A stretch of 24,000 bases of DNA from an uncultured Gammaproteobacteria bacterium (GTDB lineage: Bacteria > Patescibacteriota > Microgenomatia > UBA8517 > UBA10165): NCBI GenBank assembly GCA_964564005.1, contig CAZLZK010000002.1, positions 14,313 through 38,312 of the forward strand, written 5' to 3'. The notes beneath the pieces are model-generated. The model saw only the letters and a list, made by a program, of their open reading frames with translations, did no database searches and was not told where the DNA came from. The position numbers and the translations under genes are program-made. Shown one piece after another: positions 1-24,000 of this stretch. How positions within the stretch are numbered: position 1 is the first letter of the stretch; the number at the start of each line of letters is the position of its first letter.

Positions 1-641
1 GATGAAGAAAGGCCAACAAATAGCGCTCCTAGAAAATAATTTTTTGCTGTTGGCTTTTGCCATAATTTAATTGAAAAAAGAAATGCCATTAAAAACAAAA
101 AATTCTGGGGTATATCTGGGGTGGAATAATGTGCATCCCTAACCCAAAGTGGGGTAACACTCAGAGCAAGGGCGGATAAAAGAGCAATGCTTCGTTTTTT
201 ATATAAAGCTTCTGCGATTTTATATGTTAGGTAAACCGTACCTACTCCAAACAATACGGTTGTGAAACGACTGGCTATCCGAAGAGCATCTTGGAAAAAG
301 TAGATGGTTTTCTCAGTTACAAATTGCTGGAAATTGGTGACATCAAAAAATGCTTCTTTCGCCCCAAAATCAAAACCAGTCAGCCCGTGTACATTGTAGA
401 TAACAAAGAGAGTGATTCCGCGAATTAGTGATTGGAGATATATGATGGAGGAACCATATATAAAGGGGTAAGGTTCAACATTTGGGTCAAGATCGCCTTT
501 TTGAAAAATATTAAGAAGAATACTATTTGCAGGTTTAAATAGGACTGGCTCCTTCTGATGCAAAAGGGTATTAGGAAAAATCCCTAAGGTATTTAAAACA
601 AGAGAGAGTAGGATAACTAAAATTAACAAATACTTATTCAT
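1..641 (-). CDS. GT-C fold membrane glycosyltransferase (GT39/GT83, ArnT/PMT-like), 5' part only; the gene runs off the window start
   Basis: Absent from the supplied ORF track because it has no in-window stop. Reading the minus strand from the ATG at 641-639 gives MNKYLLILVILLSLVLNTLGIFPNTLLHQKEPVLFKPANSILLNIFQKGDLDPNVEPYPFIYGSS...RIASRFTTVLFGVGTVYLTYKIAEALYKKRSIALLSALALSVTPLWVRDAHYSTPDIPQNFLFLMAFLF..., with no stop down to base 3. It has an N-terminal anchor helix, an acidic first loop, then several hydrophobic helices. Its ATG overlaps the upstream TGA (ATGA, 638-641). Confidence 0.7.
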   Translation of the reverse strand, partial: MNKYLLILVILLSLVLNTLGIFPNTLLHQKEPVLFKPANSILLNIFQKGDLDPNVEPYPFIYGSSIIYLQSLIRGITLFVIYNVHGLTGFDFGAKEAFFDVTNFQQFVTEKTIYFFQDALRIASRFTTVLFGVGTVYLTYKIAEALYKKRSIALLSALALSVTPLWVRDAHYSTPDIPQNFLFLMAFLFSIKLWQKPTAKNYFLGALFVGLSS

Positions 642-2332
642 GGTTCTGACTTAGTATGTTCTAAATCATTTTTCCAAATTTTCAATATAGGAACGCCTTC
701 TACTTTCACCTCATAAACAGGTACTAAATATTTTTCAACATACCGCCAGGCTTCACTATCAGGTTTATATGTGTCATCGAAGGTTAGCTCCATTAAATAC
801 TCTCCTTCTTTTGCATCCCCACTAAAATAAGATTTATCGCTGGTATCTGAGTAAATATAGTTAATATCCTTTCTTAAAAGAATTACTGGGGCATTAGCAG
901 GGGTACCTTGAATAAGAGCCAATTTTGCATCTTTCGGGGCATTGGTATTTATCCACTTTATCCCTTGAAAGTAGGCGTTTCCAAAACTATTTCCCCATGA
1001 AGGAAAATTCCTCTCTTTAGCCCCCGGGAGCCCTCCAATTAGAGAATTAAAATATACATTCTCGTTGGGGTGCAACTTTACCAAGACAATAACTGGCCAG
1101 AGAAATGCTAACATCAGTCCAATTTTGACCATCAGATTGTTTCTTAACCAAATCGAAAGCTGCCAAGCTCCAAGTCCAGCAAGAAGTGCAAGTGCTGGCA
1201 AGAATTCTAAAATCTGTCTTATACCGCCATAAATAACAGTTCCGGGAAAGGAAACTCGGGCAATCGGGATAATAAACCACAATAGCCACAAGAGAGTTAC
1301 TCCTTTATATGAATTGCGATTTCGAAATGCAGAAAAAATACCGATCCCTGAAAGGGCAAGTACCAGAGGGGGTGTAGTAAATAAAATCCACTGCATCGGA
1401 TATGTATTAAAGCCAAAGAGGAAAAATCTATCCGGTTGATACTGAGTGCCTATCCCGCTTTCTCTATAGAAATTAAAGATTTTTAAGAGACTCTGCGGCC
1501 ACCCTTGCTGTAAAGAAGGCCACAGCAGAGTCAAAATTCCTAGAATAATAAAGGGTGTAGCCAAAAGGATGACAATATATAATTTCGGGATGGAGGAAGC
1601 AATTTTGTTCGGTGAAGAAATTTTGCCACGATAGCGATAAAGAAGATATGAAACAAGAATTATGGGGAGAAAGAGAATATTTAACTTTGTACCAAGACCG
1701 AGTGCAAAGAATACAATTGATATAACCAACCAACGAAGGCTTCCATTTTTGAGTGAGTTATAAAAGCTCCAGACTGTCGCAGCAAAAAATGCAGCTTGAG
1801 GAGGATCTTTAACATTAAAGTGCGCCTCCGACCAAAAAAGTGGATAGGTTGCTAGGGCCAGGAATGCTATGCTCGCGGCAAATGGCCCGAACGTACTCGA
1901 AGCAAAAGCAACAACTACAAACACTAAAACACTTGAAGCAAGGATATTAAATAAATGATGGGCTGAAATGTCATCGAGTATTCCAAGTTTCTGAAAGAAA
2001 ATATAATTCGAAAGTGCAGCTAGTTCATCACTTAGGGGCGGGTGACCAAGATCCTTATATTTCAACCAGAATTCGCCATTGTGATAGTCGTTTTGATAAA
2101 AACTTCTTCGTGGAATAGGAATCTCATTTGGGTCCCCATTGGTACCCTGTAAATCTATATCAGACAAGTCCTGGTAACTTTTATTACCAGTCAAAAAATA
2201 ATATAGATAAGCTTGACCACGTCTAAGGTGAATTGCATCATCCCAGGAAACGCCATAATGCGAAAGAGTTAAAAACCCAAGGATAAAAAAACCAAGTGGT
2301 AATAGAAAAAGGGGTGAAAATTTTTTTAACAT
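638..2332 (-). CDS. GT-C fold membrane glycosyltransferase (GT39/ArnT-like); acceptor unknown
   Basis: 564-aa track ORF. It is strongly hydrophobic with many TM helices. The first loop carries the acidic motif HYGVSWDDAIHLRRGQ typical of GT-C enzymes. A soluble C-terminal domain follows. Gap of 32 nt to the upstream gene and a 4-nt ATGA overlap with the downstream gene. Confidence 0.8.
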   Translation of the reverse strand: MLKKFSPLFLLPLGFFILGFLTLSHYGVSWDDAIHLRRGQAYLYYFLTGNKSYQDLSDIDLQGTNGDPNEIPIPRRSFYQNDYHNGEFWLKYKDLGHPPLSDELAALSNYIFFQKLGILDDISAHHLFNILASSVLVFVVVAFASSTFGPFAASIAFLALATYPLFWSEAHFNVKDPPQAAFFAATVWSFYNSLKNGSLRWLVISIVFFALGLGTKLNILFLPIILVSYLLYRYRGKISSPNKIASSIPKLYIVILLATPFIILGILTLLWPSLQQGWPQSLLKIFNFYRESGIGTQYQPDRFFLFGFNTYPMQWILFTTPPLVLALSGIGIFSAFRNRNSYKGVTLLWLLWFIIPIARVSFPGTVIYGGIRQILEFLPALALLAGLGAWQLSIWLRNNLMVKIGLMLAFLWPVIVLVKLHPNENVYFNSLIGGLPGAKERNFPSWGNSFGNAYFQGIKWINTNAPKDAKLALIQGTPANAPVILLRKDINYIYSDTSDKSYFSGDAKEGEYLMELTFDDTYKPDSEAWRYVEKYLVPVYEVKVEGVPILKIWKNDLEHTKSEP

Positions 2333-2364: not shown

Positions 2365-5046
2365 TCAGTTCTTATGAAATTCTTTAATTATTCCTCTGTC
2401 TTTTGCCTCTCGAATACCGATATTACGTAGCTTAGCCGATTCTACTTCAAGTTCCAACGGATCATAAGGGAGGTTTATACTCACATTCTTTAAAAGTGTC
2501 CCCCCTGGGGAAAATGTTAAAGAATAGTCTGTCGTTTGATTGATTCTATCAACTGGTACTCTTCTAATAAGCTCGCCTTTATCAGTAACTATTTCAACGT
2601 CGAGAAAGAGTAGGGGTGCTGCTTGAGAAAGTATTTCATTCATCTCTATTTGTCTTTGAATGTTAATAAAAGGGTTATTAATAAAATTTTCGGCTTTGCT
2701 TGGATCAATTTCTGAAAAAATTGAGTCTACTACCTCAATTTCTGACATTGTAGGGGCGTCATTAGAGAGAGTTTCAGTAATGTCCATTCTTACATACCTT
2801 GCCCAAGTTGCACTAAATTCTTCAATAACTTTTTTACCGTCCTGTATCTCTCCACCCTTGCTTACCTCTTTAACCGTTCTCCAGTCTTTCCCGTCCAACG
2901 AAGTCAATAATGTATAAGAAGTTGGAGTTAGGGTATGCTGCCAGTTTGTCCAAACAACCTTGTTAACATTCCTAACTTGACCCAAATCCATTGTGATCTG
3001 TTCGTGCTTATTATCGTGCCAATAAATTCGGTGTCCTCTCCAACTTGTTTCGACATCATTATCAATTAAATTGACCCTTTCTTGATACATCCACTCTGAC
3101 AGGGTAGAAATTTTGACGCGGGAATAATAATCCAATTTTGACAAAAGGTATGCAATCATTTTTCTCTTTTCTCCATGGGAGTATTGTTTAATACCATTTT
3201 GAGAATAGGGATATTTAATATCGCGCTTGGCAGACGTTTTTGCTTTAAATTCCAAAACCACAGGTGAAAGCGGAGACACATCGTCAACCAAGAGATTCCA
3301 GGATCGGGGCGTATTTTCTTCTGACGCTATATCTTGCCAATCTGACCCATCTTTCAAAAGCTCTCTTGACTCATTTGTCGTATTAACTAGCTCTAGAGAG
3401 GAGTCATAATAGAAGGTATGGAGTTTGTTTATAGACTCTATATTTTTTGATAATGCTGATAGAAGTTCATCATAATTTGTGATTAGTGAGAAATCATATC
3501 TATCAACTCCATAGTAGATAGCAATGGCTGTTGTATTAGGCATTGAACCAACAGAGAAAAAATCACTAAATTGTGCTCGAGACCTTGAGTCACTTGCTAC
3601 GTCGAAATAAAATATAGAACCCTTCTCTAAAACAGGGACATCCCTCTTTAATGTTCGATAAAACTGTTGTGTGGGTCTACTAGTTTCTACCACAAAAGTC
3701 CTTTGGTATTTAAAACTTAGTAAAGAATTTACCGCCACAACAAAAACTAACGGTATTAAAGGAATAAATATATATTTTCTTGACAATTTTTGTCTCTTCA
3801 GTAAAGAATAAGCTAGGAAGGTTAAGGAACCCAAAATTAAACTGTAGCCAACGGAAGCATAATATAAATACCGGTGTACGGTAGCAAAAGTTGCTTCAGG
3901 GTATTTGATAAAATAGCTAAAAATCTGTGAGATAGTAAAAAACAGTCCAAAAAGTATCCCCAGCACAAGAAGCTTATACTTCGGCCATAAGGCAAATGAC
4001 GAAGCTAATAGAAATGTAAAAGCATACATGCCTAAGGCTCCAGATAGGCGAACATCGGTGTTTCTATACCAATATAAGTTCTGACTGGAAAAATATTGAT
4101 TCACTATAAAAGAAACGCATAATATAACCAAGGTTACGATTTTAACACCTCTTTTGGTTCCAAAGAAGGATAAAATAACCCAAGTAGATAAAGAAAAGGA
4201 CAATAAAGTCAAAAGCTGTAAATTTGCCGAAAACAAGTTTATTAACCTGTTTTGAATAACATTAGGAAAAAAAACACTACCAGAGGTAGCAAACAAAGTA
4301 GTCAGAATTTCAACTTTCCCATGCATTAAATCCTCGAATATCCCCGCAAGTGCAAAAGTTCCAGGAGTCTCATTCTTTAGGTAAAACAGATAAAAAATTA
4401 CCCAAAATGGAGCTTGTCTTATAAACATCTTTAAAAGTTTTATAGGGTTAAAAGGGAAAATTCCTAAAATAACATCCAAGACTAACACCGAGAAAATTAA
4501 ACTATGGGAACGAATAAAAATAAATTGTACTGATGCCAGAAATAATCCTAAGCTTAATAAGTAAAATTTGAGCTGGTTTTTTCTAAAAAATATAACCAGA
4601 CTCCAGAGTAGTAAAAGTAAGACTATTAAACCAACATTATTTTGCCAAGAATTGGAGATCTTTAGCATAGAATTAGATCCAACATAACCTGCCGCAAAAA
4701 TTAAAGTAGAAAAGTATGCGGTTTTCTTATTCCCGAACAATTCTTTTGCTAAAAGAGAAAAGGAATAAGCTGCTAAAAGAAAAAGCAAAAAGCCTACGAA
4801 AAAATAACCAAAAGGGTTTAACCCAAAAAATTTATAGAAAGGGATAAATGGTGTAATTGTATATTTATAAGGACCTTCCCCAAATGGCCCCGCTCCATAA
4901 CTCCCTGCAGGTCCATCAATGTGTTGCAATTTAAAAATTACAGCTGCATCATCTTGATAAAAATTCATTAAAAGGGTTTGGCCATAAGAAATAAGAGCTA
5001 TAATCAATACTAAAAGCAAGAGGAGTATTTTTTTAGAAATTTTCAT
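2365..5046 (-). CDS. Polytopic GT-C-like membrane protein fused to a C-terminal F5/8 type C (discoidin) carbohydrate-binding domain
   Basis: 893-aa ORF. The N-terminal half is multi-TM with the acidic first-loop motif NFYQDDAAVIF. The region encoded at about 2730-3070 matches the discoidin pattern: DVETSWRG..ITMDLGQVRNVNKVVWTNW..YTLLTSLDGKDWRTV..ARYVRMDITE..MSEIEVVD. The start overlaps the upstream GT2 stop by 14 nt. Confidence 0.75.
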   Translation of the reverse strand: MKISKKILLLLLVLIIALISYGQTLLMNFYQDDAAVIFKLQHIDGPAGSYGAGPFGEGPYKYTITPFIPFYKFFGLNPFGYFFVGFLLFLLAAYSFSLLAKELFGNKKTAYFSTLIFAAGYVGSNSMLKISNSWQNNVGLIVLLLLLWSLVIFFRKNQLKFYLLSLGLFLASVQFIFIRSHSLIFSVLVLDVILGIFPFNPIKLLKMFIRQAPFWVIFYLFYLKNETPGTFALAGIFEDLMHGKVEILTTLFATSGSVFFPNVIQNRLINLFSANLQLLTLLSFSLSTWVILSFFGTKRGVKIVTLVILCVSFIVNQYFSSQNLYWYRNTDVRLSGALGMYAFTFLLASSFALWPKYKLLVLGILFGLFFTISQIFSYFIKYPEATFATVHRYLYYASVGYSLILGSLTFLAYSLLKRQKLSRKYIFIPLIPLVFVVAVNSLLSFKYQRTFVVETSRPTQQFYRTLKRDVPVLEKGSIFYFDVASDSRSRAQFSDFFSVGSMPNTTAIAIYYGVDRYDFSLITNYDELLSALSKNIESINKLHTFYYDSSLELVNTTNESRELLKDGSDWQDIASEENTPRSWNLLVDDVSPLSPVVLEFKAKTSAKRDIKYPYSQNGIKQYSHGEKRKMIAYLLSKLDYYSRVKISTLSEWMYQERVNLIDNDVETSWRGHRIYWHDNKHEQITMDLGQVRNVNKVVWTNWQHTLTPTSYTLLTSLDGKDWRTVKEVSKGGEIQDGKKVIEEFSATWARYVRMDITETLSNDAPTMSEIEVVDSIFSEIDPSKAENFINNPFINIQRQIEMNEILSQAAPLLFLDVEIVTDKGELIRRVPVDRINQTTDYSLTFSPGGTLLKNVSINLPYDPLELEVESAKLRNIGIREAKDRGIIKEFHKN

Positions 5047-8831: not shown

Positions 8832-9557
8832 TTATTTCCAGGAACGTGCTTCAAACCAAAACTGAATCATCCTTTTTATGGTCTTCAAAATCATCCTCAA
8901 ACCAGAACCCTTAGGGATCCCACCCATCCTGGGCCGCCAGTTAATTGGGACCTCAACAAACTTGTATTTTTTCTTTAAAGCCTTATGGATAACTTCTGGC
9001 AAAAACATTGCGCTTCTGTCGTGGGACTTAACTTTAATCGATTGAATAACGTTGCGCCTCCATAAAGAGACACTCGAGATCTCCTTAAACTTGATGCCGA
9101 GGAGAAAGCGGCATAAGAGGTGGAAAACGCGTGAGTTAAGCTTCCGAACTAATCCCTCCTCATTTCGAATTCTATATCCAATGGCAACATCGTACTGTGG
9201 TATTGCTACAACAAACTTCTTTAACTCACTAAAGTCAAACTGTCCATCTGCGGGAGCTAAAAAAACTAAATCTTTTCTTGCGCTTTTAAAGCTAGTTTTT
9301 ATTGCTCCGGTAAATCCCCTATTCTCTTTGTGGTGCACTGCTCTAATGTGTTTATCGCGCTTAGCGAGTCTATCAATAATCTCCCCAGTCCCATCTCGCG
9401 AGCCGTCATCAACTAAGACAAGCTCATAATCCTTGGCGATGTCCTTAAGTTCCCTTTGGGCTTCTTTCGCAACACTCTCGATTGTTACCGATTCATTAAA
9501 TGCAGGAATTACAACAGAGATACTCTCTTTTACAGCGTTTCTTTTCATCGCAGACAC
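8832..9557 (-). CDS. Family 2 glycosyltransferase (ArnC/DPM1/Ppm1-like polyprenyl-phosphate sugar synthase)
   Basis: 241 aa. Motifs ISVVIPAFNES, LVLVDDGSRDGT, HKENRGFTGAIKT and LAPADGQFD. No C-terminal TM helices. Confidence 0.8.
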   Translation of the reverse strand: MSAMKRNAVKESISVVIPAFNESVTIESVAKEAQRELKDIAKDYELVLVDDGSRDGTGEIIDRLAKRDKHIRAVHHKENRGFTGAIKTSFKSARKDLVFLAPADGQFDFSELKKFVVAIPQYDVAIGYRIRNEEGLVRKLNSRVFHLLCRFLLGIKFKEISSVSLWRRNVIQSIKVKSHDRSAMFLPEVIHKALKKKYKFVEVPINWRPRMGGIPKGSGLRMILKTIKRMIQFWFEARSWK

Positions 9558-9579
9558 CTATTCCTCCAAGGGTAGTATA

Positions 9580-10227
9580 TCAAATGTGGCGAAGAAGCCT
9601 TGCGGGGTTGCCGACCACAACACTTTTTTCTGGAACGTCCTTGAGAACAACGCTCCCCATCCCGATTAAACACAAATCACCAATCTTTACCCCCTCCCGG
9701 ATAGCAGAATTTGTACCCAGATAGCATGAGTGTCCGATTTTAACCCGACTCGATATGCATACACCCCCCGTAATACATGTATAATCGCCTATTTGCGCAT
9801 CATGGCTTACTATGGAATTTGGCAATATCACTACATGGTCCCCTATTTTAGCGTTTGCCGTAACAGTAACGTTTTGAAAAATCGCGACCCCTCTTCCTAT
9901 CCGAGCCATTTTTGAAACAGCCGCCGTAGGGTGAACGACTGTCAAGAAACGCTCAGCAGGGATACCTAATCCCGTTATAATTTTTTCTTTTTTTAGGAAA
10001 TTTGATGGGCTTCCAATCCCGTTTATAAAATAGATATCTCTTAACGAGGACGCTTTTTTAAGAGGTCCTAAAACTTGAACACCGTGAATCTTCTTCCCCC
10101 AAATCTTTTCGTTATCATCAAGAAATCCCACGCACTTTAACTTCTCGCCGCGGTCCGCCAAATCTGCAATCGTGTCAAGGATGTCTAGAGATGTACCGCC
10201 AGTACCTAAAATCACTATTTTCTTCAT
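9580..10227 (-). CDS. NeuD/PglD/PerB-family left-handed beta-helix N-acetyltransferase
   Basis: 215 aa. The N-terminal Rossmann-like lobe is KKIVILGTGGTSLDILDTI...GFLDDN. Hexapeptide repeats follow, with SHD as the position of the catalytic His in PglD, and a terminal VVVGNPARLL. ATGA overlap with the upstream aminotransferase. Confidence 0.8.
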   Translation of the reverse strand: MKKIVILGTGGTSLDILDTIADLADRGEKLKCVGFLDDNEKIWGKKIHGVQVLGPLKKASSLRDIYFINGIGSPSNFLKKEKIITGLGIPAERFLTVVHPTAAVSKMARIGRGVAIFQNVTVTANAKIGDHVVILPNSIVSHDAQIGDYTCITGGVCISSRVKIGHSCYLGTNSAIREGVKIGDLCLIGMGSVVLKDVPEKSVVVGNPARLLRHI

Positions 10228-11369
10228 CCTAGTTTGGTTGCCTTCAAGACGCCTTCGATTATATAATCTTGCTCCTCTATTGTCATTTGGGGATATAGAG
10301 GTAACAAAAGAGTTTCCTTGGCAGCTCTCTCTGTCTCGGGCAAAGAAACTTTCCCAACCAACTTTCGGTAGGGAACTTCAAGGTGTGCTGCCATAACCCC
10401 ACGCCTTGTTGCAATTCCCTCGTCCAGGAGCTTCTGCATTAAATAATCTCTTGTTATCTTATCGTTCTTTCTTAATCGCACAACGTAAGTCTGCCAGTTG
10501 TGAGTATACCCCTGCGGCACATAAGGTGGGACAATGAGTGCGCTTTTTGCAAAGGCTTTGTTATAACGCTCGGCAAGTTCCTTTCTGGCTGCTAAAATCT
10601 TGGGTAGCTTTTTCATTTGCTCAACCCCAACTGCTGCCTCGAGATCGCTCATTCGGAAATTAAAGCCTATTTCAGGATATTTTTCATGAATAACCTTCGT
10701 TGTCTTGTGTCGCGCGACATCTGAAATTCCCATCCCTTGGTGGCGAAGAAGCCTTGCCTGCTCGGCAAGTTTTTTATTATTGGTTGTAATCATTCCCCCA
10801 TCTCCTGTTGTAATAAGTTTTCTTGGATGAAAACTAAAACAGGTAAGCTCGGTTATTGAACCAATTCTCTTTCCTTTATATTCACTCCCCAGGGCACACG
10901 CGGCATCTTCAACAACGAGCAGTCTATGTCTTTTGGCAATCTTGTGAATCTCGTCAAGGTCGCAGGGAAGGCCAACTTGGTCAACTGCCATTATTGCCTT
11001 TGTATTCTTAGTAACTGCTTTCTCGACCTCTTCTGGATCAAGGTTGTATGTTCTCGGGTCTATATCAACAAAGACCGGCTTTGCGCCGGTGTGGACAATA
11101 ACATTTGCGGTTGCAATAAAAGAAAAAGATGGCACAATTACTTCATCCCCTGGACCAATGTCATACATATATAAACTTAAAAAAAGTGCGGTGGTTCCAG
11201 AAGTTGTTGCAACAGCGTACTTTACGCCTACATAGTCTGCGACCAAGCTCTCAAACTCTGCAACTTTCGGCCCTTGGGTAACCCAACCAGAACGAATAAC
11301 CGTGGTAAGCGCTTCCTCCTCCGAAGTGTCAAAATATGGTTTGGTAATGGGGATCTTAACTTTTCTCAT
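10224..11369 (-). CDS. DegT/DnrJ/EryC1-family PLP-dependent sugar aminotransferase (4-aminotransferase-like, ArnB/PglE/Per type)
   Basis: 381 aa. Motifs GW.TQGPKV.EFE and GDEVIVPSFSFIATAN. The Schiff-base lysine context is FSFHPRKLITTGDGG. An HQGMGISDVARH insertion resembles the ArnB HGLGVDAYDR segment. Overlaps the upstream SDR stop by 14 nt. Confidence 0.85.
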   Translation of the reverse strand: MRKVKIPITKPYFDTSEEEALTTVIRSGWVTQGPKVAEFESLVADYVGVKYAVATTSGTTALFLSLYMYDIGPGDEVIVPSFSFIATANVIVHTGAKPVFVDIDPRTYNLDPEEVEKAVTKNTKAIMAVDQVGLPCDLDEIHKIAKRHRLLVVEDAACALGSEYKGKRIGSITELTCFSFHPRKLITTGDGGMITTNNKKLAEQARLLRHQGMGISDVARHKTTKVIHEKYPEIGFNFRMSDLEAAVGVEQMKKLPKILAARKELAERYNKAFAKSALIVPPYVPQGYTHNWQTYVVRLRKNDKITRDYLMQKLLDEGIATRRGVMAAHLEVPYRKLVGKVSLPETERAAKETLLLPLYPQMTIEEQDYIIEGVLKATKLG

Positions 11370-12339
11370 CCTCTATCGGGTTTTCTCTATACCACTTAAT
11401 GGACCTCGTAATACCTTCCTCGAGTTCGACCTTGGGTCTATAGTCTAGCAATTTACCTGCCTTTTGAATACTCGGTACTCTAAGTTCAATATCTACTTCT
11501 ATATGGGGAATAAATTTCATTTTAGAGCGAGACTTTGCCAAAGCAATAATTACCTTAGCAAGATTATAAGTGGTTATGGTCCCAGACGGATTCCCAATAT
11601 TAAATATTTCCCCTACAGCTTCTTTTCTCTCTAAGATAGCCATCATCGCGTCAATAAAATCATCAATATAGCACCAGGCTCTAATTTGATTCCCGTCACC
11701 GGTTATTCGTATTTCTTGATTTTCGATTGCCCGTCTTGCAAAGATCTGGATTGCTCCTTCCCCTACCTGCCCAGGTCCATAAATATTGAACGGCCGGATC
11801 GAAGTTACCGGAATGCCATACTGGACAGCATAGGCAAAAGTAAGGCCTTCTCCAGCCAGTTTACTGATACCATATGTCCATCTTCTCTGTTTCAATTGAC
11901 CTTGGGCTGTCACCCCATCCTCCTTTGCCCCAAAAGCCATGGGCCCATACACTTCGCTGGTAGAAAAATAAACCAACCTCTCTAGTCTAAGGTCTTTTAT
12001 TGCCTCAAGAACGGAGTATGTCCCGACTGCATTAACTTCCATGGTTTTAACGGGCTGATGATAATAGTCGCTTACTCCCGCCATAGCTGCTAAATGAAGT
12101 ACTATATTAGGCTTGAAATCGCTGACCGTTTTTTTAAGAAAATTTCTGTCTAGAATATCGCCAACCACATTTCGGGTGTTTTTCTTATTTATATCTTTTT
12201 GGAAGTATTGAAATGCGTTCCTCCGCAAGTTATCAAAAGTCATTATCTTGTTACTTTTAGATAACGCCTTACAGAGGCTAGTGCCAATAAATCCCTGTCC
12301 GCCGGTTATAAAAATCCTTTTACCCTTAATCATAAGCAT
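11356..12339 (-). CDS. Extended SDR producing an NDP-4-keto sugar; best fit is a UXS/ArnA-C-terminal-like UDP-uronate decarboxylase, alternatively a 4,6-dehydratase
   Basis: Motifs KRIFITGGQGFIGTSL, FSTSEVYGP (TSE triad as in UXS, ArnA and GMD, unlike SSATVYG of GalE), YGISKLAGE (YxxxK) and RPFNIYGPG. Start placed at the ATG at 12339 (MLMIKGKR), or 12333. The track TTG start at 12390 lies inside the 21-bp tandem repeat and would add a non-homologous leader. Confidence 0.75.
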   Translation of the reverse strand: MLMIKGKRIFITGGQGFIGTSLCKALSKSNKIMTFDNLRRNAFQYFQKDINKKNTRNVVGDILDRNFLKKTVSDFKPNIVLHLAAMAGVSDYYHQPVKTMEVNAVGTYSVLEAIKDLRLERLVYFSTSEVYGPMAFGAKEDGVTAQGQLKQRRWTYGISKLAGEGLTFAYAVQYGIPVTSIRPFNIYGPGQVGEGAIQIFARRAIENQEIRITGDGNQIRAWCYIDDFIDAMMAILERKEAVGEIFNIGNPSGTITTYNLAKVIIALAKSRSKMKFIPHIEVDIELRVPSIQKAGKLLDYRPKVELEEGITRSIKWYRENPIEDEKS

Positions 12340-12432: not shown

Positions 12433-13551
12433 CTAGACCTTCTTCAAATTTTTCTTCAACGAAGATGCTACTTCCTGAATATCACTATTGGTGATCTCGG
12501 GAAAAATAGGAAGAGATAATGTGTGTCTCGCTAGTTCCTCCGCATGGGGAAAGTCTCCTTCCTTGTGTCCCAAAGATTTAAAAACAGGTTGAAGATGAAG
12601 AGGAATGGGATAGTGGATTCCAACCTCAATCCCCTTTTTCCTCATCTCGTCATACACACTATCTCTGTCCTCAACTTGTATGGCGTAAAGGTGATAGACG
12701 GATTTTACGCCCTCTGGCTCGAAAGGCGTGACAACGGGTAAATCTTTAAGTAGATTGTTATAGAGTTGGGCAACTTCACGCCTTCTCTCATTCCACTTTT
12801 TGAGGTATTTTAATTTTACTAAAAGGACTGCCGCTTGAAGCGTATCCATTCTTGATGAATAGCCTAAAATATCATGTGTATATTTCTCTTTCCTTCCATG
12901 GTTTCTCAATAATCTGAGTGTCTGCGTAATGCTTTCATTATTAGTAATAACTGCGCCAGCATCTCCATAAGCTCCTAAGTTCTTACCGGGATAAAAGGAG
13001 AAAACGGCCGCGTCCCCAATAGTGCCTACACACCTTCCTTTATACAAAGCACCGTGAGCTTGTGCAGCATCTTCTAGGATAAAGAGTTTATGCTTTTTTG
13101 CGATTTCGATTATAGGGTCCATATCGGCCGGTTGCCCATAAATGTGGACAGGAATTATCCCCTTAGTCTTTTTTGTTATCTTATTTTCAATCTTTTCCGG
13201 ATCTATGTTATATGTTTTAGGATCTATATCTACAAACACAGGGGTGGCCCCGCACATGGAAATTGCTGAAGCTGTTGCTACAAAGCTATGGGGAGTCGTA
13301 ACAACTTCATCTCCAGAATTTACTCCCAAAGCTAGTAACGACAAAAATAAAGCATCTGTTCCAGATGCTACCCCTATTGTATACTTCGCGCCTATAAATC
13401 GAGAAAAGGCCTCCTCAAAAATTTTTACCTCTTCTCCCATAATGAAATTGGTGTTTTTGATAACACCGTTTATCGTCTCATCAATATCTTTTTTAATGCT
13501 TTTGTACTGAAGCTTGAGATTTACCAGGGGAATTTTATATTTGGGTCTCAT
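12433..13551 (-). CDS. DegT-family sugar 3-aminotransferase, WbpE/WlbC-like
   Basis: 372 aa. Motifs NLKLQYKSIKKDID..., GAKYTIGVASGTDAL, PVFVDIDPKTYNIDP, FSFYPGKNLGAYGDAGA (lysine present) and HGRKEKYTHDILGYSSRMDTLQAAVL. The pattern matches my recollection of P. aeruginosa WbpE and QdtB/DesV-type C3 aminotransferases. Confidence 0.8.
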   Translation of the reverse strand: MRPKYKIPLVNLKLQYKSIKKDIDETINGVIKNTNFIMGEEVKIFEEAFSRFIGAKYTIGVASGTDALFLSLLALGVNSGDEVVTTPHSFVATASAISMCGATPVFVDIDPKTYNIDPEKIENKITKKTKGIIPVHIYGQPADMDPIIEIAKKHKLFILEDAAQAHGALYKGRCVGTIGDAAVFSFYPGKNLGAYGDAGAVITNNESITQTLRLLRNHGRKEKYTHDILGYSSRMDTLQAAVLLVKLKYLKKWNERRREVAQLYNNLLKDLPVVTPFEPEGVKSVYHLYAIQVEDRDSVYDEMRKKGIEVGIHYPIPLHLQPVFKSLGHKEGDFPHAEELARHTLSLPIFPEITNSDIQEVASSLKKNLKKV

Positions 13552-13578
13552 GAAAAGAACTCTGTTTACAAAAAAGGG

Positions 13579-14175
13579 CTATGGATATATTTTCTCCCCG
13601 CTATCATATTTTAAATCGGGTAAGCGCGCGACAACCTTTGCTGGGTTGCCCACCACAACTGAATTCTCAGGAACATCTTTAGTTACCACGCTACCCGCGC
13701 CTATTAGGGCATTTCTTCCAATAATTACCCCAGGCAAGAGAACTGCTCCTGCCCCAATTTTAGCTCTACTTTTAACAGTAACTCCACTTAAACCTTCTTT
13801 TGCTCTTGGAGACGCAGGATACTTAGCGTTGGTAAAAGTCACTGTAGGACCAACCCAAACATCATCCTCCAAAACTGTATACTCTGGTATAAAGACATTT
13901 GAATGGATTCTAACATTATTGCCAATCGTTACGTGGTGCTCTATATCCGTGTGGGAACCAACGCTAACATTGTCACCTATGACATTTAATTCTCTAATTA
14001 AAACTCCGTGTCCTGTCTGAAAATTATTTCCTATAATATTGCCTGCATAAATAACCGTGTGGGAGCGAATGTTGGCTTTATTCCCAATTACAGTAGGCTT
14101 CGTTTTTTGTTTTGGTTGGCATCCAATAATCACAAACTTATCAATCCGGGGGTCTTTGCCTGCTTTAAAGTTCAT
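13579..14175 (-). CDS. Left-handed beta-helix N-acetyltransferase, WbpD/WlbB-like
   Basis: 198 aa of hexapeptide repeats. The segment GPTVTFTNAKYPASPRAKEG...IGAGAVLLPGVIIGRNALIGAGSVVTKDVPENSVVVGNPAK parallels the WbpD segment GPSMVFTNVYNPRS...VGAGAVINKDVP..MVGVPAR. Confidence 0.75.
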   Translation of the reverse strand: MNFKAGKDPRIDKFVIIGCQPKQKTKPTVIGNKANIRSHTVIYAGNIIGNNFQTGHGVLIRELNVIGDNVSVGSHTDIEHHVTIGNNVRIHSNVFIPEYTVLEDDVWVGPTVTFTNAKYPASPRAKEGLSGVTVKSRAKIGAGAVLLPGVIIGRNALIGAGSVVTKDVPENSVVVGNPAKVVARLPDLKYDSGEKIYP

Positions 14176-14185: not shown

Positions 14186-15199
14186 TTATAAATTGACCTT
14201 TTTACCGATTTCTGCAGATTTATAAAGAGCTTCTACAATCTGCAAAGACCTTATTCCTTCTAATCCTGAGGTCGCGGGGTCCCGATCTTGTTCTATTGCC
14301 GAGATCATCTCTTCAATTACTTGGGTATGAGAATTTCCGTAGACAGAAGCAGGGTCAGAATCTGCAAGAGTTAATATTTCATGTTCCCTATCCTCTTCAC
14401 CTTTCACCTTCCAAATAACGAGTCTGTTCAGAGCCGTTCCTCCGATCTTAACAGACCCAGTCTCGCCAAACAGCGAGACTGATCCTTCTAAGTTTTGAGG
14501 CCAACAGATAGTCGACGCCTCAAGAGAAGCAAGTGCACCTCCTGGAAATTCCAAAAAAGCTAACGCCGTATCTTCCGTCTCCATTTCGTGGGCAAGAGTG
14601 GCTTTTTTGCAAAACACTGCTCTGGGCATTCCCATCAACCACTGTAATGCATCGATGTGATGAATTGCTTGATTCATTAATACTCCCCCATCCATATCTT
14701 TCGTACCATGCCACCCATCGTTATAATATTCTTGAGGTCTATACCATCTAACTGTGATGTTGCCTAGATAAATTTTTCCCAACCCTTTTTGCAGAACCAG
14801 CTTTTTTACATCTTGCATCGGACTGTTGTATCTATTTTGCAGAACTACACAAAGTTTCCTCTTATATCTGTCTGCCGTTTTAATAACTTCTTCCGCATCT
14901 TTCACTGTCAAAGCCATCGGTTTTTCGACTAACACGTGTTTACCTTTTCGCAAAGCTTTTATAGCCATCTGGGCATGTAAACCAGAAGGTGTACAGATAT
15001 TTATAACGTCGACGTCGCGCCTTGAAAGCACTTCTTCAAAACTGAAAACAGGGTGGGAGTGGTATTGTTTTGCAAGAGTGTTTGCCTTTTCTCCAACAAC
15101 GTCGCAAACGGCCGTTAGCTTGGCGTTACTGCAACCTACGATGGACTGTGCATGCCTTGGGGCAATTCTACCGCAACCAACAATCGCAAATTTAATCAT
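14186..15199 (-). CDS. Gfo/Idh/MocA-family NAD-dependent sugar-nucleotide dehydrogenase, WbpB/WlbA-like
   Basis: 337 aa. Motifs MIKFAIVGCGRIAPRH (Rossmann), EKPMALT and NRYNSP. The C-terminal alpha/beta domain fits. It sits directly upstream of the WbpD-like and WbpE-like genes, with gaps of 10 and 27 nt, in the classical wbpB-wbpD-wbpE order. Confidence 0.75.
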   Translation of the reverse strand: MIKFAIVGCGRIAPRHAQSIVGCSNAKLTAVCDVVGEKANTLAKQYHSHPVFSFEEVLSRRDVDVINICTPSGLHAQMAIKALRKGKHVLVEKPMALTVKDAEEVIKTADRYKRKLCVVLQNRYNSPMQDVKKLVLQKGLGKIYLGNITVRWYRPQEYYNDGWHGTKDMDGGVLMNQAIHHIDALQWLMGMPRAVFCKKATLAHEMETEDTALAFLEFPGGALASLEASTICWPQNLEGSVSLFGETGSVKIGGTALNRLVIWKVKGEEDREHEILTLADSDPASVYGNSHTQVIEEMISAIEQDRDPATSGLEGIRSLQIVEALYKSAEIGKKVNL

Positions 15200-15395: not shown

Positions 15396-17774
15396 TCATA
15401 GTATACCTCTGTTATTAGGCAAGAACAAGTCATCGTCCAAAATGGTAGTTGGTTGTAAATCAGAAGCTGGCTGGCGTATTCTCGTTTCCATTACTTCTAC
15501 GCTATCCAGATAAAAACCCACCTGAGGATTGTCTCCCTGAAAACCTATCGCTCCCAACCGTGTGCCTTCCGGTGCAGTGCCATAAACTTCAACCTTATGC
15601 CACTCACTTTTACCATATATTCTCTCTGATACAAAACTGACAATGGGCCTCGCGGTAATGCTAGCCGGTACTTCTTCTGAATAAAAGTCCAGCCTTAAAA
15701 ATCCGTCTCTTGATTCCTTGGCTAACTCACTGACATTTTTGATCCAACCCACCAACTTATATCCATAACCTGACTTTACTTCAAAATAAGGAGATTGCCA
15801 CCTCACCGATCCCGGGAAAGAACCACGACTTTTAATTACTAGCGCCTCATTGCCATCTCTCCCATCCTTGTCTACCTTTAGGTCCTCTTTATCCTTAGGT
15901 AAATAATAGAGGGGGGTCCATTTATTATCTTCGAAAGTATATTTAGCAATTGATAAGAATTCCTGGTTTTTGTCTTTTTCTAGTCTAAATACCACATAAT
16001 TATCTCCAGCCGCCTGCCAACGAGTAAGGAAGGCTTTGAGTGTATGTGACCATAAAGTTTCCCTTAACGCCAGGGCTATGTAGTTTTGTGAAAGGAGGTC
16101 ATTCGGTTTATTCCAAAATTTAATGCCAATTTCTGGCGACTGCCTCATCCACCACATAAACGCTCCCTGGATATCATTCATGTCTAAAATCGCATAGTCA
16201 TAACCTTCTTGTTTTAGTTCTTTATATGAAAATACCTTGCTAAGATATGATAAGGATTTTACCTGAACTTGCTTGTCTTTACTTGAGGGGTTATGTTCAT
16301 ATGTGGCAAGAGTCACGTCTCCCTTAATATTTTTTTCTGTCCACTCTCTTGCCTCAATAAAAGTTGATTTTTGAGAGTATCCCTGAATCATTATTTTATC
16401 GTTGATAACGTGGTCCTTAAGTCCAAAAAACAAAGCTCCTACAAAAAAAATGGCCCCAACCATCTTAATAAACAGCCCCTTTCTTTTGAAAAGTAAGTTA
16501 AATATATATTCAATACATAGAGCCGAGAAAATAAGAAGCATGGGGATTAAGACTATGGTATTCCTTGTGAAGAAACCCCCTCCTGTATAATACATATATA
16601 AGTAAATGTTTATTGGAAATATTGAGAGCAATAAAAGTGTGGTAAGCCTTAAATCTTTTTTTAAAAACCCTATTAAAATACCAAATATCGCAAACCAAGT
16701 GAGTTGCGCACCTACCCCAAAATGATACATGTAAGAAGCAGGGAAAATGCTGATCGTGTTTAACCCAAAAGCATATTTTGCAGCTTCATATCTATGTAAC
16801 TCCAAAACCCTTTCCCAGTGCTGGAAATAGTGTATGTGAGAAATCAAGACTATTCCTAAAGACACGAGCCCTCCAATGATCACTTTCGGGCTCAAGAATT
16901 CTGCCCAAAATTTTTTAAGGTTCTTCTTTGAGTACTTCCAGCTGATCACTAGGTGAGCAAGGAAAAAAGGGAAAAATGCATAGATTTGATATTTTGTCAA
17001 GAAGGATAGGCTTACTAAAACCCCGCAAATTAAATATCTTTTCAAGGTTGGCTCCTTTAATAACGCGCCAACTGCCAAAAGAACAGCTAAAAGGAAAAAG
17101 ACATTGTACATGTCTATAAAGCCAATATGGCTACTCAGAATAAGCCTGTAATTAACTGCTACCAAAAATGCTGCAAGAAGCGCAGTGCTCTTTTTCCCCA
17201 AGAGGGTATGGGCGACTTGATATGTAAGGTAAATTGCTCCGCTACCAAAGATAGCTGTCAGATAACGTCCCCAATATAAAGCGTTGGCCCAATTTCTGCC
17301 AAAGACCTCTTTGTGAAAAAGATTTGTTTGAGAAATTGCTATGGTTCCCGAGATAATAAGAACAACCCAGAGGAACAGAAGAGAAACAACTAAAGTTTTC
17401 CTGTTGTCCCAATGTATTAACTTGCGAAGTAAGAACACAACACCCAAAAGTCCGGCAAAAGCAGGCAAAAGGAACATCCAAATATCATTGAAATGGCGGA
17501 CTAGTGTTAAAAACCATGCCGCCGGAATAAACACACCGGCAAATGCAACCAGCATAATCCACCCAACCAATGGAGGGTAACCTAGCCATTGTAGTTGCAT
17601 ACTCAATGTTTTGTGGGTAATCATATATACAGCCTGGGCATACATTAGTTCATCGCCATGAGAGTAATAGCCGGGGTAGACGATAACAAAGCGAAGAATC
17701 AGCCCGAGTAAAAGAATTGTGGGCAGGGTGAACTTATGTCTTACCCACTTTGGCACGAATGATAAAAACACCAT
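15396..17774 (-). CDS. GT-C fold membrane glycosyltransferase with a C-terminal jelly-roll (CBM4_9 / galactose-binding-like) domain
   Basis: The N-terminal part has many TM helices and the acidic first-loop motif YYSHGDELMYAQ. The C-terminal roughly 130 aa (GNEALVIKSRG..VRWQSPYFEVKSGYGYKLVGWIKN...SEWHKVEVYGTAPEGT..GFYLDSVEV) fits a carbohydrate-binding beta-sandwich pattern. Start placed at the ATG at 17774, with AAGGGGGA 10 nt upstream. The track start at 17813 would give an 80-nt overlap with the upstream gene, and even 17774 gives 41 nt. Confidence 0.7.
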   Translation of the reverse strand: MVFLSFVPKWVRHKFTLPTILLLGLILRFVIVYPGYYSHGDELMYAQAVYMITHKTLSMQLQWLGYPPLVGWIMLVAFAGVFIPAAWFLTLVRHFNDIWMFLLPAFAGLLGVVFLLRKLIHWDNRKTLVVSLLFLWVVLIISGTIAISQTNLFHKEVFGRNWANALYWGRYLTAIFGSGAIYLTYQVAHTLLGKKSTALLAAFLVAVNYRLILSSHIGFIDMYNVFFLLAVLLAVGALLKEPTLKRYLICGVLVSLSFLTKYQIYAFFPFFLAHLVISWKYSKKNLKKFWAEFLSPKVIIGGLVSLGIVLISHIHYFQHWERVLELHRYEAAKYAFGLNTISIFPASYMYHFGVGAQLTWFAIFGILIGFLKKDLRLTTLLLLSIFPINIYLYMYYTGGGFFTRNTIVLIPMLLIFSALCIEYIFNLLFKRKGLFIKMVGAIFFVGALFFGLKDHVINDKIMIQGYSQKSTFIEAREWTEKNIKGDVTLATYEHNPSSKDKQVQVKSLSYLSKVFSYKELKQEGYDYAILDMNDIQGAFMWWMRQSPEIGIKFWNKPNDLLSQNYIALALRETLWSHTLKAFLTRWQAAGDNYVVFRLEKDKNQEFLSIAKYTFEDNKWTPLYYLPKDKEDLKVDKDGRDGNEALVIKSRGSFPGSVRWQSPYFEVKSGYGYKLVGWIKNVSELAKESRDGFLRLDFYSEEVPASITARPIVSFVSERIYGKSEWHKVEVYGTAPEGTRLGAIGFQGDNPQVGFYLDSVEVMETRIRQPASDLQPTTILDDDLFLPNNRGIL

Positions 17775-18330
17775 AATCAAAAGTTCCCCCTTTCTTCCTA
17801 AATTGCCTTTCAATTTCTAAGCCGCCACTTATCAGTGATCTATAACTTTCTACATCTCTCACATAATGCCCTTTATCCAAACTTCTCAAAATGTGGCTAA
17901 GAATATTCCACTTATAAATTGGAGGTATAGCTTCTATCATAATAATTTTTCCATTTGACATAAGCAACGATTTCATGACTCCTAAACTAGCTTGCAGTTC
18001 TCTATCGTTCAGGTGGTGTAACACCCCCACAACCACAATCAAGTCAAATCCTTTGTGCAACCTTAACTTTGTCACGTCACCAACCCGAAATGTGTACTCT
18101 TGATATTTTCTCTTGGCATAAGTGATGGCCCTTGGATCAATATCGATACCAAGATATTGTTTTGGAGAAAAGAGTGGCGCTAAGATTCCAATCCCACAAC
18201 CAAAATCTAAGACATTATTGTACTTCTGCCCTTTCAAGACATCACTGATAATCTTTCTAATAACAAAATAATTAAAACTTAGAACCCTAATAAAAAGATA
18301 GGACAAAAAATATTGTAATCTGTCAAGCAT
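17734..18330 (-). CDS. Class I SAM-dependent methyltransferase (Methyltransf_11/25-like), substrate unknown
   Basis: 198 aa. Motif I is VLDFGCGIGILA, post-I is GIDID, and motif II/III is FDLIVVVGVLHHL. Confidence 0.75.
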   Translation of the reverse strand: MLDRLQYFLSYLFIRVLSFNYFVIRKIISDVLKGQKYNNVLDFGCGIGILAPLFSPKQYLGIDIDPRAITYAKRKYQEYTFRVGDVTKLRLHKGFDLIVVVGVLHHLNDRELQASLGVMKSLLMSNGKIIMIEAIPPIYKWNILSHILRSLDKGHYVRDVESYRSLISGGLEIERQFRKKGGTFDYGVFIIRAKVGKT

Positions 18331-22791: not shown

Positions 22792-24000
22792 CTATTTTCT
22801 GACAATTGTAGGGGCTACTCGACCAAGAGAAAAAACAATTTTATTAGATCCAAGAACATTCCATATATCACAAATAGTACATTTTCTGTTCGTAACTTTT
22901 CTAATATAATCTAATGTCAATTTCTTAAATGGAGAGTGATTCATTGCTATCACGACAACATCTGCTCCACGCAGCGCTTCTTCTAGAGAGAAAGAGTCTA
23001 TGTACGGGTCGTGTGGGTAGACTTCTGCACCTTCTCTAATTAAATATTGCTGCAATTTCAATGACAGAGAGTTTCTAGTATCATCAATATCTCTTTTGAA
23101 TGTAAGCCCTAGTAAGGCCACTTTTTTTTCAGACAAAGAACCTACTTCTCTTTTCAATTTTTCTATTAAAAATCCAGGAATATTTTCGTTAATTCTCCAA
23201 GCGGCCCCCACCAAATCTAGATACGGGCTTCTATCGATTAAGAAGAAACTATCTTTAACTAAACAAGCGCCTGCAGTAAGTCCGGGTGGTTTCACCCTCG
23301 CTCTTTCATAATCTTCATTTACAAATTTTAAAATATCATAAATATTGCGATTGTGGCTTTCAGCAATTAGCAGAAATTCATTGCCAATTGCGAAATCAAT
23401 ATAGCGATAGGCATTATTAAAAAGTTTTGCTAACTCAGCCGACTTTGAATCAGTAAGAAAAATCTTATCGGTGATTTTCTTAAAAATTAAACCTGCCTTT
23501 TCTTGACTTTTTGAATCATCCGCACCAATTATTTGTGGCAGCTTGTAAAGCTCTTGAATGGCATGGCCTTCTCTTATTCTCTCGGGACAGGCTGCCAGAT
23601 AAATATCTTTTCCTACTTCAAAATTCAAACTCTTTTTAATGAACCTTGCAATATATTCTGTTGTACCAACCGAGAGTGTACTCCTTAAGATAAAAAGCTG
23701 TCCCTTCCGTATCGACGATTGAAACTTCTCAAAAAAATCAGTTATCTGCGTAATGTTTGGGTTTAAGCTATCATCAATCGTTGTTCCAAGAGTTAAAATG
23801 ACTGTATCGAAATTCGGTAAAAGATTAAGTAAAGTATTTTCATGAGCAACAGTAAAACCATTGCCATAGACTTCTTTTAAAATCTTCTCTGCGCCTTCTT
23901 CAAGGAAGGGCATTTTACCATCCTTTAGAGATTGCAGACGAGTTTCATCTATGTCAACACCCACAACCTCAAATCCTTCCTTAGCTAGAACTAAAGCAAG
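22792..24000 (-). CDS. UDP-glucose/GDP-mannose dehydrogenase-family nucleotide-sugar 6-dehydrogenase, 5' end beyond the window
   Basis: The frame stays open upstream of the track GTG at 23964 to the window edge (...LALVLAKEGFEVVGVDIDETRLQSLKDGKMPFLEEG...), and the Rossmann GxGxxG is missing, so the gene is N-terminally truncated by the window. The catalytic Cys context is PGLTAGACLVKD. A C-terminal UDP-binding domain is present. Its stop abuts the next gene's ATG. Confidence 0.85.
   Translation of the reverse strand, partial: LALVLAKEGFEVVGVDIDETRLQSLKDGKMPFLEEGAEKILKEVYGNGFTVAHENTLLNLLPNFDTVILTLGTTIDDSLNPNITQITDFFEKFQSSIRKGQLFILRSTLSVGTTEYIARFIKKSLNFEVGKDIYLAACPERIREGHAIQELYKLPQIIGADDSKSQEKAGLIFKKITDKIFLTDSKSAELAKLFNNAYRYIDFAIGNEFLLIAESHNRNIYDILKFVNEDYERARVKPPGLTAGACLVKDSFFLIDRSPYLDLVGAAWRINENIPGFLIEKLKREVGSLSEKKVALLGLTFKRDIDDTRNSLSLKLQQYLIREGAEVYPHDPYIDSFSLEEALRGADVVVIAMNHSPFKKLTLDYIRKVTNRKCTICDIWNVLGSNKIVFSLGRVAPTIVRK

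Follow-up and report, generated by a model that had tools for sequence, protein, structure and literature searches.

An Arn-like gene module in a CPR bacterium and its candidate lipid-linked, N-acetylated triamino-pentose

What sugar does a compact string of four genes in a bacterium of the Candidate Phyla Radiation (CPR) make, and is that sugar loaded onto a lipid carrier? The genes lie at 8832-12339 of a 24,000-nucleotide window, by which we mean the whole stretch of DNA analysed (contig CAZLZK010000002.1 of assembly GCA_964564005.1, positions 14,313 to 38,312). They encode an extended short-chain dehydrogenase/reductase (SDR), a DegT aminotransferase, a NeuD-type N-acetyltransferase of the left-handed beta-helix (LbH) class and a family 2 glycosyltransferase (GT2). 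The host, an ultra-small CPR relative of Woesebacteria, has a genome of 0.78 Mb in 71 contigs that is 84% complete and includes a tmRNA. In the initial annotation the string was read as an Arn-like module with the formyltransferase replaced by an acetyltransferase, and in its broad lines this Arn-like interpretation finds support. The sugar pathway itself appears to be a route of the Psychrobacter cryohalolentis type with a non-orthologous terminal acetyltransferase. That sugar and its route are already known. The new element is its predicted transfer to polyprenyl phosphate by a CPR bacterium, which places the novelty in the lipid-carrier step and not in the sugar.

We propose the following pathway from what we observed directly: which genes are present and in what order, the families to which they belong, and how their homologues are linked in other genomes. 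A WbpA-like dehydrogenase (22792-24000) would oxidise UDP-GlcNAc to UDP-GlcNAcA, which homologues of WlbA, WlbC and WlbB (12433-15199) would convert to UDP-2,3-diacetamido-2,3-dideoxy-glucuronic acid (UDP-GlcNAc3NAcA). The SDR would oxidise C4 and decarboxylate, in the manner of Pcryo_0617, to give a UDP-4-keto-pentose. The DegT enzyme would aminate C4 and the NeuD-type enzyme would acetylate the new amine, yielding UDP-2,3,4-triacetamido-2,3,4-trideoxy-arabinose, with the acetyl group in the role of the formyl group of the Arn pathway. The ArnC/DPMS-like GT2, which lacks transmembrane (TM) helices, would then move the sugar onto polyprenyl phosphate, and after flipping one of the many GT-C glycosyltransferases (GT-Cs) of the contig would pass it to an extracytoplasmic acceptor. 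The full model of a lipid-linked, fully N-acetylated triamino-pentose, with its predicted substrate, product, lipid loading and acceptor taken jointly, is put forward tentatively, at somewhat less than an even chance of being right.

Enzyme classes within the module

All four genes are present on the minus strand as the initial annotation had placed them, overlapping or tightly packed, with 22-31 nt between the acetyltransferase and GT2 genes (Table 1). They form the downstream half of a co-directional string that runs from 15199 to 6830. We assigned the class of the SDR from bit scores and structural Z scores and by comparing motifs, and the functions of Pcryo_0616, Pcryo_0617 and Pcryo_0618 are those given in Protein Data Bank (PDB) entry titles. 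A PDB sequence search with the SDR returned 8vr2 as best match (E 8e-89, 301 bits, ~45% identity), an entry titled 'Pcryo_0617 oxidoreductase/decarboxylase from Psychrobacter cryohalolentis K5'. Scores for other entries were 148 bits for the archaeal epimerase Mth375, 129 for human UXS, at most 122 for RmlB-type enzymes and 87 for ArnA. The AlphaFold2 (AF2) model of the SDR (pLDDT 87) also has 8vr2 as its top structural match (Z 39.1).

The motifs GGQGFIGTSL, FSTSEVYGP and RPFNIYGP, picked out earlier in the SDR, were confirmed in alignments. The Rossmann motif GxxGxxG takes the form GGQGFIG, and its glycines are kept in 74 of 74 family members that cover those columns (the other 15 of 89 are N-terminally short). 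Residues S126-T127-S128-E129, Y156, K160 and R220 align with STSEVYG, Y..K and SQTR of human UXS; with the exception of one T-to-S change, S-T-S-E, RWxYxxxK and QxRxWC are invariant in all 89 members. With Pcryo_0617 as by far the closest solved relative and the TSE, YxxxK and arginine positions kept, the earlier assignment of the SDR to UXS/ArnA-type decarboxylases is borne out, and we predict a UDP-uronate 4-oxidase/6-decarboxylase of this type, in the Pcryo_0617 subgroup.

Could the SDR instead be a 4,6-dehydratase, as the initial annotation allowed, or a simple 4-epimerase, in which case the product of the trio would be a 4-amino-4,6-dideoxyhexose with an N-acetyl group, akin to bacillosamine, viosamine or perosamine? 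The best NCBIfam model for the protein is indeed that of dTDP-glucose 4,6-dehydratase, but at 171 bits it falls below the cut-off of 365. The second-best PDB match is the Mth375 epimerase, but this enzyme lacks the TSE motif and, like every other dehydratase or epimerase, scores at most 148 bits, half the score of Pcryo_0617. GDP-mannose dehydratases also carry a TSE motif, and a Woesebacteria genome with a related SDR (G057) has no uronate-forming dehydrogenase, both of which would fit a dehydratase; the window SDR nevertheless has TSE where RmlB has TDE. In addition, the genome encodes all of RmlABCD, including a true RmlB that has the TDE motif and scores 435 bits with TIGR01181; this RmlB and a canonical UXS-like enzyme both lie on another contig. 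A dehydratase or simple epimerase is very unlikely, since 8vr2 is the best match, the UXS catalytic residues are kept, and the genome has its own RmlB and UXS-like enzyme elsewhere.

The aminotransferase carries its pyridoxal phosphate lysine, K184, in an invariant SxHxRK motif, in agreement with the earlier report of an intact lysine. Its PDB matches are perosamine synthase (E 3e-77), ArnB (E 5e-73) and 8vr3, Pcryo_0618 (E 2e-61), and its AF2 model (pLDDT 94) gives Z scores of 53 for perosamine synthase, 52 for ArnB, and 51 each for Pcryo_0618 and the Vibrio vulnificus 4-aminotransferase 9bgp. The NCBIfam ArnB model scores 307 bits against an equivalog cut-off of 631, so the enzyme is a homologue of ArnB and not an equivalog. 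The acetyltransferase, previously described as NeuD/PglD/PerB-type, is confirmed as such by TIGR03570 (188.2 bits, above the cut-off of 160.8) and by its PglD_N and Hexapep domains. Its PDB matches are VioB (E 9e-31), PerB (E 7e-18) and PglD (E 1e-17), and 8vr6, the P. cryohalolentis acetyltransferase, aligns over residues 160-212 only (E 2e-12). These matches support placing both enzymes in C4-specific groups, ArnB/perosamine synthase for the aminotransferase and VioB/PerB/PglD for the acetyltransferase. We predict that the NeuD-type enzyme acetylates the 4-amino group, the same reaction as predicted for the non-orthologous Pcryo enzyme.

Table 1. Coordinates of features discussed in the text, with strand and main matches
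Feature	Coordinates	Strand	Matches and remarks
SDR	11356-12339	(-)	ATG at 12339, alternative TTG at 12390; Pfam Epimerase E 2e-58
DegT aminotransferase	10224-11369	(-)	14-nt overlap with SDR stop; Pfam DegT E 3e-123
NeuD/PglD/VioB-type LbH N-acetyltransferase	9580-10227	(-)	4-nt overlap with DegT gene; PglD_N + Hexapep
ArnC/DPMS-like GT2	8832-9557	(-)	GTG start or ATG at 9548; Pfam Glycos_transf_2 E 1e-24
NDP-N-acetylhexosamine 6-dehydrogenase (WbpA/WecC/Cap5O-like)	22792..24000	(-)	Pfam UDPG_MGDP_dh N, central and C domains; 5' end cut by contig end
WlbA/WbpB-like UDP-GlcNAcA 3-dehydrogenase (Gfo/Idh/MocA)	14186..15199	(-)	Pfam GFO_IDH_MocA N + C
LbH 3-N-acetyltransferase (WlbB/WbpD/QdtC-like)	13579..14175	(-)	Hexapep E 2e-22
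C3 aminotransferase (WlbC/WbpE/QdtB-like)	12433..13551	(-)	DegT E 1e-130
GT-C (PMT_2), 805 aa, candidate transferase	15396..17813	(-)	PMT_2 + PMT matches; ~10 TM segments
GT-C (PMT_2), 564 aa, candidate transferase	638..2332	(-)	PMT_2 E 3e-14; 9 TM segments
Multi-TM protein, 893 aa, possibly GT-C	2365..5046	(-)	C-terminal F5_F8_type_C (discoidin) E 8e-16; ~10 TM segments
TylCIII/TcaB9-type sugar C-methyltransferase	7550-8797	same string	34 nt downstream of ArnC-like GT2

The Wlb genes and the substrate of the SDR

Which UDP-uronate would the SDR receive? The initial annotation proposed UDP-GlcA or UDP-GlcNAcA and left the WlbA, WlbB and WlbC homologues, which lie in the same gene string, unconnected to the module. 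All four genes of a WbpA-, WlbA-, WlbC- and WlbB-type set for UDP-GlcNAc3NAcA supply are in the window. The dehydrogenase gene is real, though its 5' end is cut by the end of the contig, and its proposed role as uronate supplier stands as a prediction, here for UDP-GlcNAcA: NCBIfam models of UDP-ManNAc dehydrogenases score 201 and 163 bits against 114 for the UDP-glucose dehydrogenase TuaD, and PDB entries 4r16 (E 9e-53) and Cap5O (E 7e-50) score well ahead of UDP-glucose dehydrogenase (E 3e-27). The WlbA-like protein matches 3q2i (E 9e-77) and 3q2k (E 5e-76) over its full length, which we take to be the WlbA structures of Thoden & Holden 2011, a reference of PMC10622841. For the C3 aminotransferase the matches are QdtB (E 3e-106), WbpE (E 3e-88) and 8e75, Pcryo_0616 (E 8e-85). 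The LbH 3-N-acetyltransferase matches QdtC (E 1e-48) more closely than 3mqg (E 2e-23), presumably WlbB, and for this reason we infer its substrate.

The set corresponds to WbpA/B/E/D, an established route to UDP-GlcNAc3NAcA (PMC10622841). According to PDB titles, the P. cryohalolentis K5T pathway comprises Pcryo_0616, a 3-aminotransferase for UDP-GlcNAc3NA; Pcryo_0617 (8VR2), the decarboxylase; Pcryo_0618 (8VR3/8VR5), an aminotransferase; and an acetyltransferase (8VR6) that was deposited in the same series. The related V. vulnificus entry 9BGP is titled as an aminotransferase making a 2,3-diacetamido-4-amino sugar. The order WlbC-SDR-DegT in the window is that of Pcryo_0616-0617-0618, and the P. 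cryohalolentis O-antigen contains 2,3,4-triacetamido-2,3,4-trideoxy-L-arabinose (PMC8040287). Blocks of the form (dehydrogenase)-WlbA-WlbB-WlbC-SDR-DegT-acetyltransferase are found again in loci from Clostridiaceae, Sedimentibacter, Acetoanaerobium, Oscillibacter, Omnitrophota and Nevskiales, and at one of the loci (L027) the WlbB and WlbC genes that match best (55% and 58%) stand directly ahead of an SDR and DegT pair. Given the upstream Wlb genes, the Pcryo gene order, the recurrent blocks and the C4-type enzymes, UDP-GlcNAc3NAcA is the most likely substrate and UDP-2,3,4-triacetamido-2,3,4-trideoxy-arabinose the most likely product. The Pcryo order and the recurrent blocks make the substrates proposed earlier less likely, and the predicted product is a 2,3,4-triacetamido-pentose instead.

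The likeness to the P. cryohalolentis pathway covers the enzyme logic, the order of WlbC-type aminotransferase, decarboxylase and 4-aminotransferase, and the Wlb supply upstream. There are also differences. The 4-N-acetyltransferase of the window is NeuD/PglD/VioB-type, whereas the Pcryo enzyme is of a 182-aa type; the 4-aminotransferase is nearer ArnB and perosamine synthase than Pcryo_0618; an ArnC-like GT2 directly follows the module; and the host is a CPR bacterium, whereas P. cryohalolentis is a Gram-negative that builds O-antigen.

Several observations weigh against UDP-GlcNAc3NAcA. The closest SDR relatives with known context (62% in G057, 59% in Elusimicrobia L001) have no Wlb genes nearby, and G057, a single 0.92-Mb contig, has neither WlbA nor an NDP-sugar 6-dehydrogenase (PF03721) anywhere, so this SDR clade may use another substrate. 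In the 89-member SDR tree the Wlb-linked members are dispersed and form no clade of their own, and position in the tree therefore does not settle the substrate; the window SDR groups there with CPR-type sequences (SH-aLRT 99), including G057 and two GT2-SDR fusions. The genome also encodes two proteins like UDP-glucose dehydrogenase (C45:624-2942 and C16:12040-12906) as well as the canonical UXS, so UDP-GlcA may be available.

On a reading that these points favour, the SDR takes UDP-GlcA or UDP-GlcNAcA, the product is polyprenyl-phosphate-linked 4-acetamido-4-deoxy-arabinose or a 2,4-diacetamido pentose, and the Wlb genes serve a separate GlcNAc3NAcA residue of the same glycan. It would account for the lack of Wlb genes within 10-20 kb in G057, L001, L067 and L079, for Ignavibacteria members that pair the SDR with a formyltransferase in the manner of a split ArnA, for the UDP-glucose-dehydrogenase-like genes on C16 and C45, and for the 93-nt gap between WlbC and SDR. 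Yet the tight co-directional string keeps the Pcryo_0616-0617-0618 order, Wlb-SDR-DegT-acetyltransferase blocks occur in other phyla, and the canonical UXS already provides the genome with an enzyme for UDP-GlcA. Nor does the window encode another predicted consumer of UDP-GlcNAc3NAcA, and no 2-epimerase (PF02350) that could divert it was found in the genome. We therefore regard a UDP-GlcA or UDP-GlcNAcA substrate as a serious but less likely alternative, at roughly one chance in five, and retain UDP-GlcNAc3NAcA.

Two side observations concern these dehydrogenases and the Woesebacteria relative. The profile matches of both UDP-glucose-dehydrogenase-like genes begin only near position 70, and their N-termini may be truncated or their starts miscalled; the one on C45 adjoins a second Gfo/Idh/MocA gene. 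The SDR of G057 is a decarboxylase homologue without an evident uronate source.

Predicted lipid loading and transfer

Is the sugar then placed on a lipid? The description of the GT2 as ArnC/DPM1-like agrees with its best PDB relatives, which are ArnC (E 3e-17; residues 8-220 align in both proteins, a span that takes in the interface helices as well as the catalytic domain), Pyrococcus DPMS (E 5e-11) and GtrB (E 3e-6), and the NCBIfam PpgS model also matches (E 7e-9). In a GT2 tree its nearest relatives are the SDR-adjacent GT2s of L039, L067 and L079 and not its own paralogues (SH-aLRT 84), and it shares 31% identity with the GT2 part of a GT2-SDR fusion, P0006. We predict from these matches that it is a polyprenyl-phosphate glycosyltransferase.

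Other results count against lipid loading. The NCBIfam ArnC model scores 76 bits on the GT2, far under its cut-off of 529, and no TM helix is predicted where ArnC has two C-terminal ones. The tree support for GT2 orthology is modest, and GT2 genes abound in glycan loci. None of the fetched loci with WlbABC in canonical order has an ArnC-like GT2, and the sugar of P. cryohalolentis presumably reaches the O-antigen from a soluble UDP donor. A search for GtrA flippases, with the SMR/EamA families (ArnE/F) outside it, identified no dedicated flippase and only one GtrA-like domain, which lies on another contig inside a 443-aa open reading frame (ORF). Deacylases of the ArnD type (PF01522) and the NaxD type (PF04794) were not found in the 84%-complete genome; the acetyl group probably stays on the sugar, because no deacylase was found.

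The seven enzymes might instead make soluble UDP-2,3,4-triacetamido-arabinose for a Leloir glycosyltransferase, while the GT2 loads another sugar or builds the chain. This would fit the WlbABC-SDR-DegT-acetyltransferase loci elsewhere that lack an adjacent ArnC-like GT2, the weak likeness of the GT2 to ArnC, and the presence in the window of three similar TM-less DPM1-like GT2s along with several other sugar-modifying genes. It fits less well with the existence of GT2-SDR fusions, with the GT2s that adjoin SDR modules in G057, L039, L067, L079 and L073, and with the clustering of the window GT2 among such SDR-adjacent enzymes and apart from its paralogues. A soluble donor is, in our judgement, unlikely, and loading onto polyprenyl phosphate remains our preferred reading.

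Systems built from a GT2, a flippase and a GT-C offer a second comparison. Francisella FlmF2/NaxD/FlmK, Bordetella LgmA/B/C, mycobacterial PpgS/Rv3779 and CsbB-GtcA-YfhO of Bacillus and Listeria load N-acetylated sugars onto polyprenyl phosphate from common UDP-HexNAc donors, and TM-less synthases such as PpgS exist among them. The window likewise pairs a small DPM1/ArnC-like GT2 with GT-Cs, and G057 has a YfhO-like GT-C beside its GT2. Unlike these systems, the window operon holds a dedicated multi-step sugar pathway, and no NaxD/YdjC-type or ArnD-type deacetylase was found.

The Arn system itself (PmrHFIJKLM; ArnA, ArnB, ArnC, ArnD, ArnE/F and ArnT) adds 4-amino-4-deoxy-L-arabinose to lipid A in Enterobacteria. 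Its sequence of uronate 4-oxidation and decarboxylation, C4 transamination, N-acylation, loading by a GT2 and transfer by a GT-C would be paralleled in the window, where each step is predicted from the genes. The window differs from Arn in having acetyl for formyl, with no ArnA N-terminal domain (Pfam finds no Formyl_trans domain in the window), in a likely substrate that bears two acetamido groups, in a GT2 without the TM helices of ArnC, and in that profiles PF01522 and PF04794 detect no ArnD-like deacylase in the genome. Several PMT_2 GT-Cs are present in the window, none of them assignable to this sugar or identified as an ArnT orthologue, and lipid A is not expected as acceptor. To our knowledge, CPR bacteria lack lipopolysaccharide.

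Candidate transferases include two PMT_2 proteins and a multi-TM protein with a discoidin tail (Table 1), and homologues of the last (893 aa, 2365..5046) adjoin the SDR module in G057. A small contig, C67:1-2822, encodes the C-terminal part (410 aa) of a YfhO-like GT-C that is 40% identical to the GT2-adjacent GT-C of G057, followed by a second PMT_2-like GT-C. The C67 GT-C may be the partner transferase, split from the window by the assembly. A 134-aa ORF with four TM segments in the left flank has no family match and does not resemble the 4-TM ORF found in L039.

Related modules and genomic setting

Several phyla have modules of SDR, DegT, acyltransferase and GT2, and GT-C genes are often their neighbours. 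In the Woesebacteria genome G057 the operon at C1:556680-563590 (L090, L091) reads YfhO-like GT-C, GT2, SDR (62%), DegT, GNAT and radical SAM. SDR-DegT pairs adjoin homologous GT2s in Omnitrophota (L039), in Gemmatimonadales (L067, L079) and at a euryarchaeal locus (L073), and genes for multi-TM or PMT_2 proteins lie close by. The two Gemmatimonadales loci are collinear; at the DNA level their SDR-DegT stretches are 89% identical and their GT2 genes 88%. Between these, L067 has a NeuD-type LbH acetyltransferase (L067:12069-12800; 43% identical to the window enzyme in the same position) where L079 has an Fmt_N+Fmt_C formyltransferase (L079:12069-13040). At the level of gene content this swap shows that predicted formyl- and acetyltransferases are interchangeable in the module. 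It is also a natural counterpart of the replacement of a formyltransferase by an acetyltransferase suggested for the window, where the position is held by a NeuD-type LbH enzyme.

A five-gene module in Ignavibacteriota and Bacteroidota (L008:7368-12614 and about 40 more loci) encodes a PMT_2 GT-C, a GNAT (Acetyltransf_6), a Pcryo_0617-type SDR, a formyltransferase and an amidohydrolase. Its SDR and formyltransferase resemble a split ArnA, and no aminotransferase was detected adjacent to it. Gene fusions, seen in proteins of public assemblies, also link these functions: P0006 and P0007 are GT2-SDR fusions (566 and 567 aa) with 81% mutual identity and an SDR half 66% identical to that of the window, P0121 is an SDR-DegT-LbH fusion (871 aa), P0126 is DegT-SDR (684 aa), and P0127 joins a GT87 GT-C to an SDR (645 aa). 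Many members of the SDR family are 610-630-aa forms with an N-terminal CoA_binding_3 domain. The closest SDR relatives, P0002 and P0003, are 85-87% identical, and a metagenome scan with the SDR found full-length relatives of at most 28% identity, along with two short partial matches at 32-34%.

Does the window then exemplify something broader? Polyprenyl-phosphate-linked triacetamido-arabinose may be the donor for lectin-tailed GT-Cs that decorate a CPR surface, in what would be the first extracytoplasmic glycosylation of the Arn type to use a fully N-acetylated triamino-pentose, and the module may belong to a widespread, unnamed Arn-like family (Ignavibacteriota, Gemmatimonadota, Omnitrophota, Elusimicrobiota, CPR and archaea) with interchangeable formyl-, acetyl- and GNAT-type acyltransferase cassettes. 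We regard this wider proposal as possible but doubtful. Should the predicted lipid loading hold, a rare sugar so far seen only in the O-antigens of Gram-negatives would double as a lipid-linked GT-C donor in a CPR bacterium; the little-known surface chemistry of CPR bacteria probably governs host attachment. The Arn paradigm would be broadened too, given that decarboxylase-aminotransferase-N-acyltransferase-GT2-GT-C modules appear widespread and, from the formyl/acetyl swap and the Rosetta-stone fusions, modular, beyond lipid A and polymyxin resistance. The fusions and the compact operon offer simple constructs for making UDP- or polyprenyl-phosphate-linked triacetamido-pentose and for tests of ArnC-like specificity.

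The SDR family is rare among kin of the host, found in 1 of 60 relatives (the relatives searched are all genomes of 0.6-1.2 Mb) and in 1 of 400 sampled genomes of the phylum, and on this basis the module is accessory and probably acquired. GC content is ~38% in the window and 44% genome-wide. The entire 38-kb contig is glycan machinery, with at least six large multi-TM GT-C-like proteins, several of them with F5/8 type C (discoidin) or carbohydrate-binding module (CBM) tails, as well as five GT2s, about seven methyltransferases, two carbamoyltransferases and one SGNH protein. Within the window the minus-strand genes form a near-unbroken string. A scan for promoters and terminators found sites no more frequent than expected by chance, and the sole terminator-like hairpin in an intergenic gap is at 15375-15391, upstream of wlbA.

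Some neighbouring genes deserve brief mention. TylCIII/TcaB9-type C-methyltransferases act next to a 4-keto group, and the UDP-4-keto-pentose of the SDR is a conceivable substrate of the one encoded directly after the GT2, which would lead to a branched aminopentose. A 234-aa protein (18917-19621) is weakly DUF218-like and was rejected as a deacetylase candidate, as it bears no likeness to one. A plus-strand ORF of 154 aa (18379-18843), in the only sizeable gap, has no Pfam match and may not be a gene. Elsewhere in the genome, a second glycan locus (L094, contig C1:56000-72000) has, besides the complete RmlABCD set and the canonical UXS-like enzyme, genes for two DPM1/AglJ-like GT2s and for a GT2 of 440 aa with a fused TM domain that is GtrA-like.

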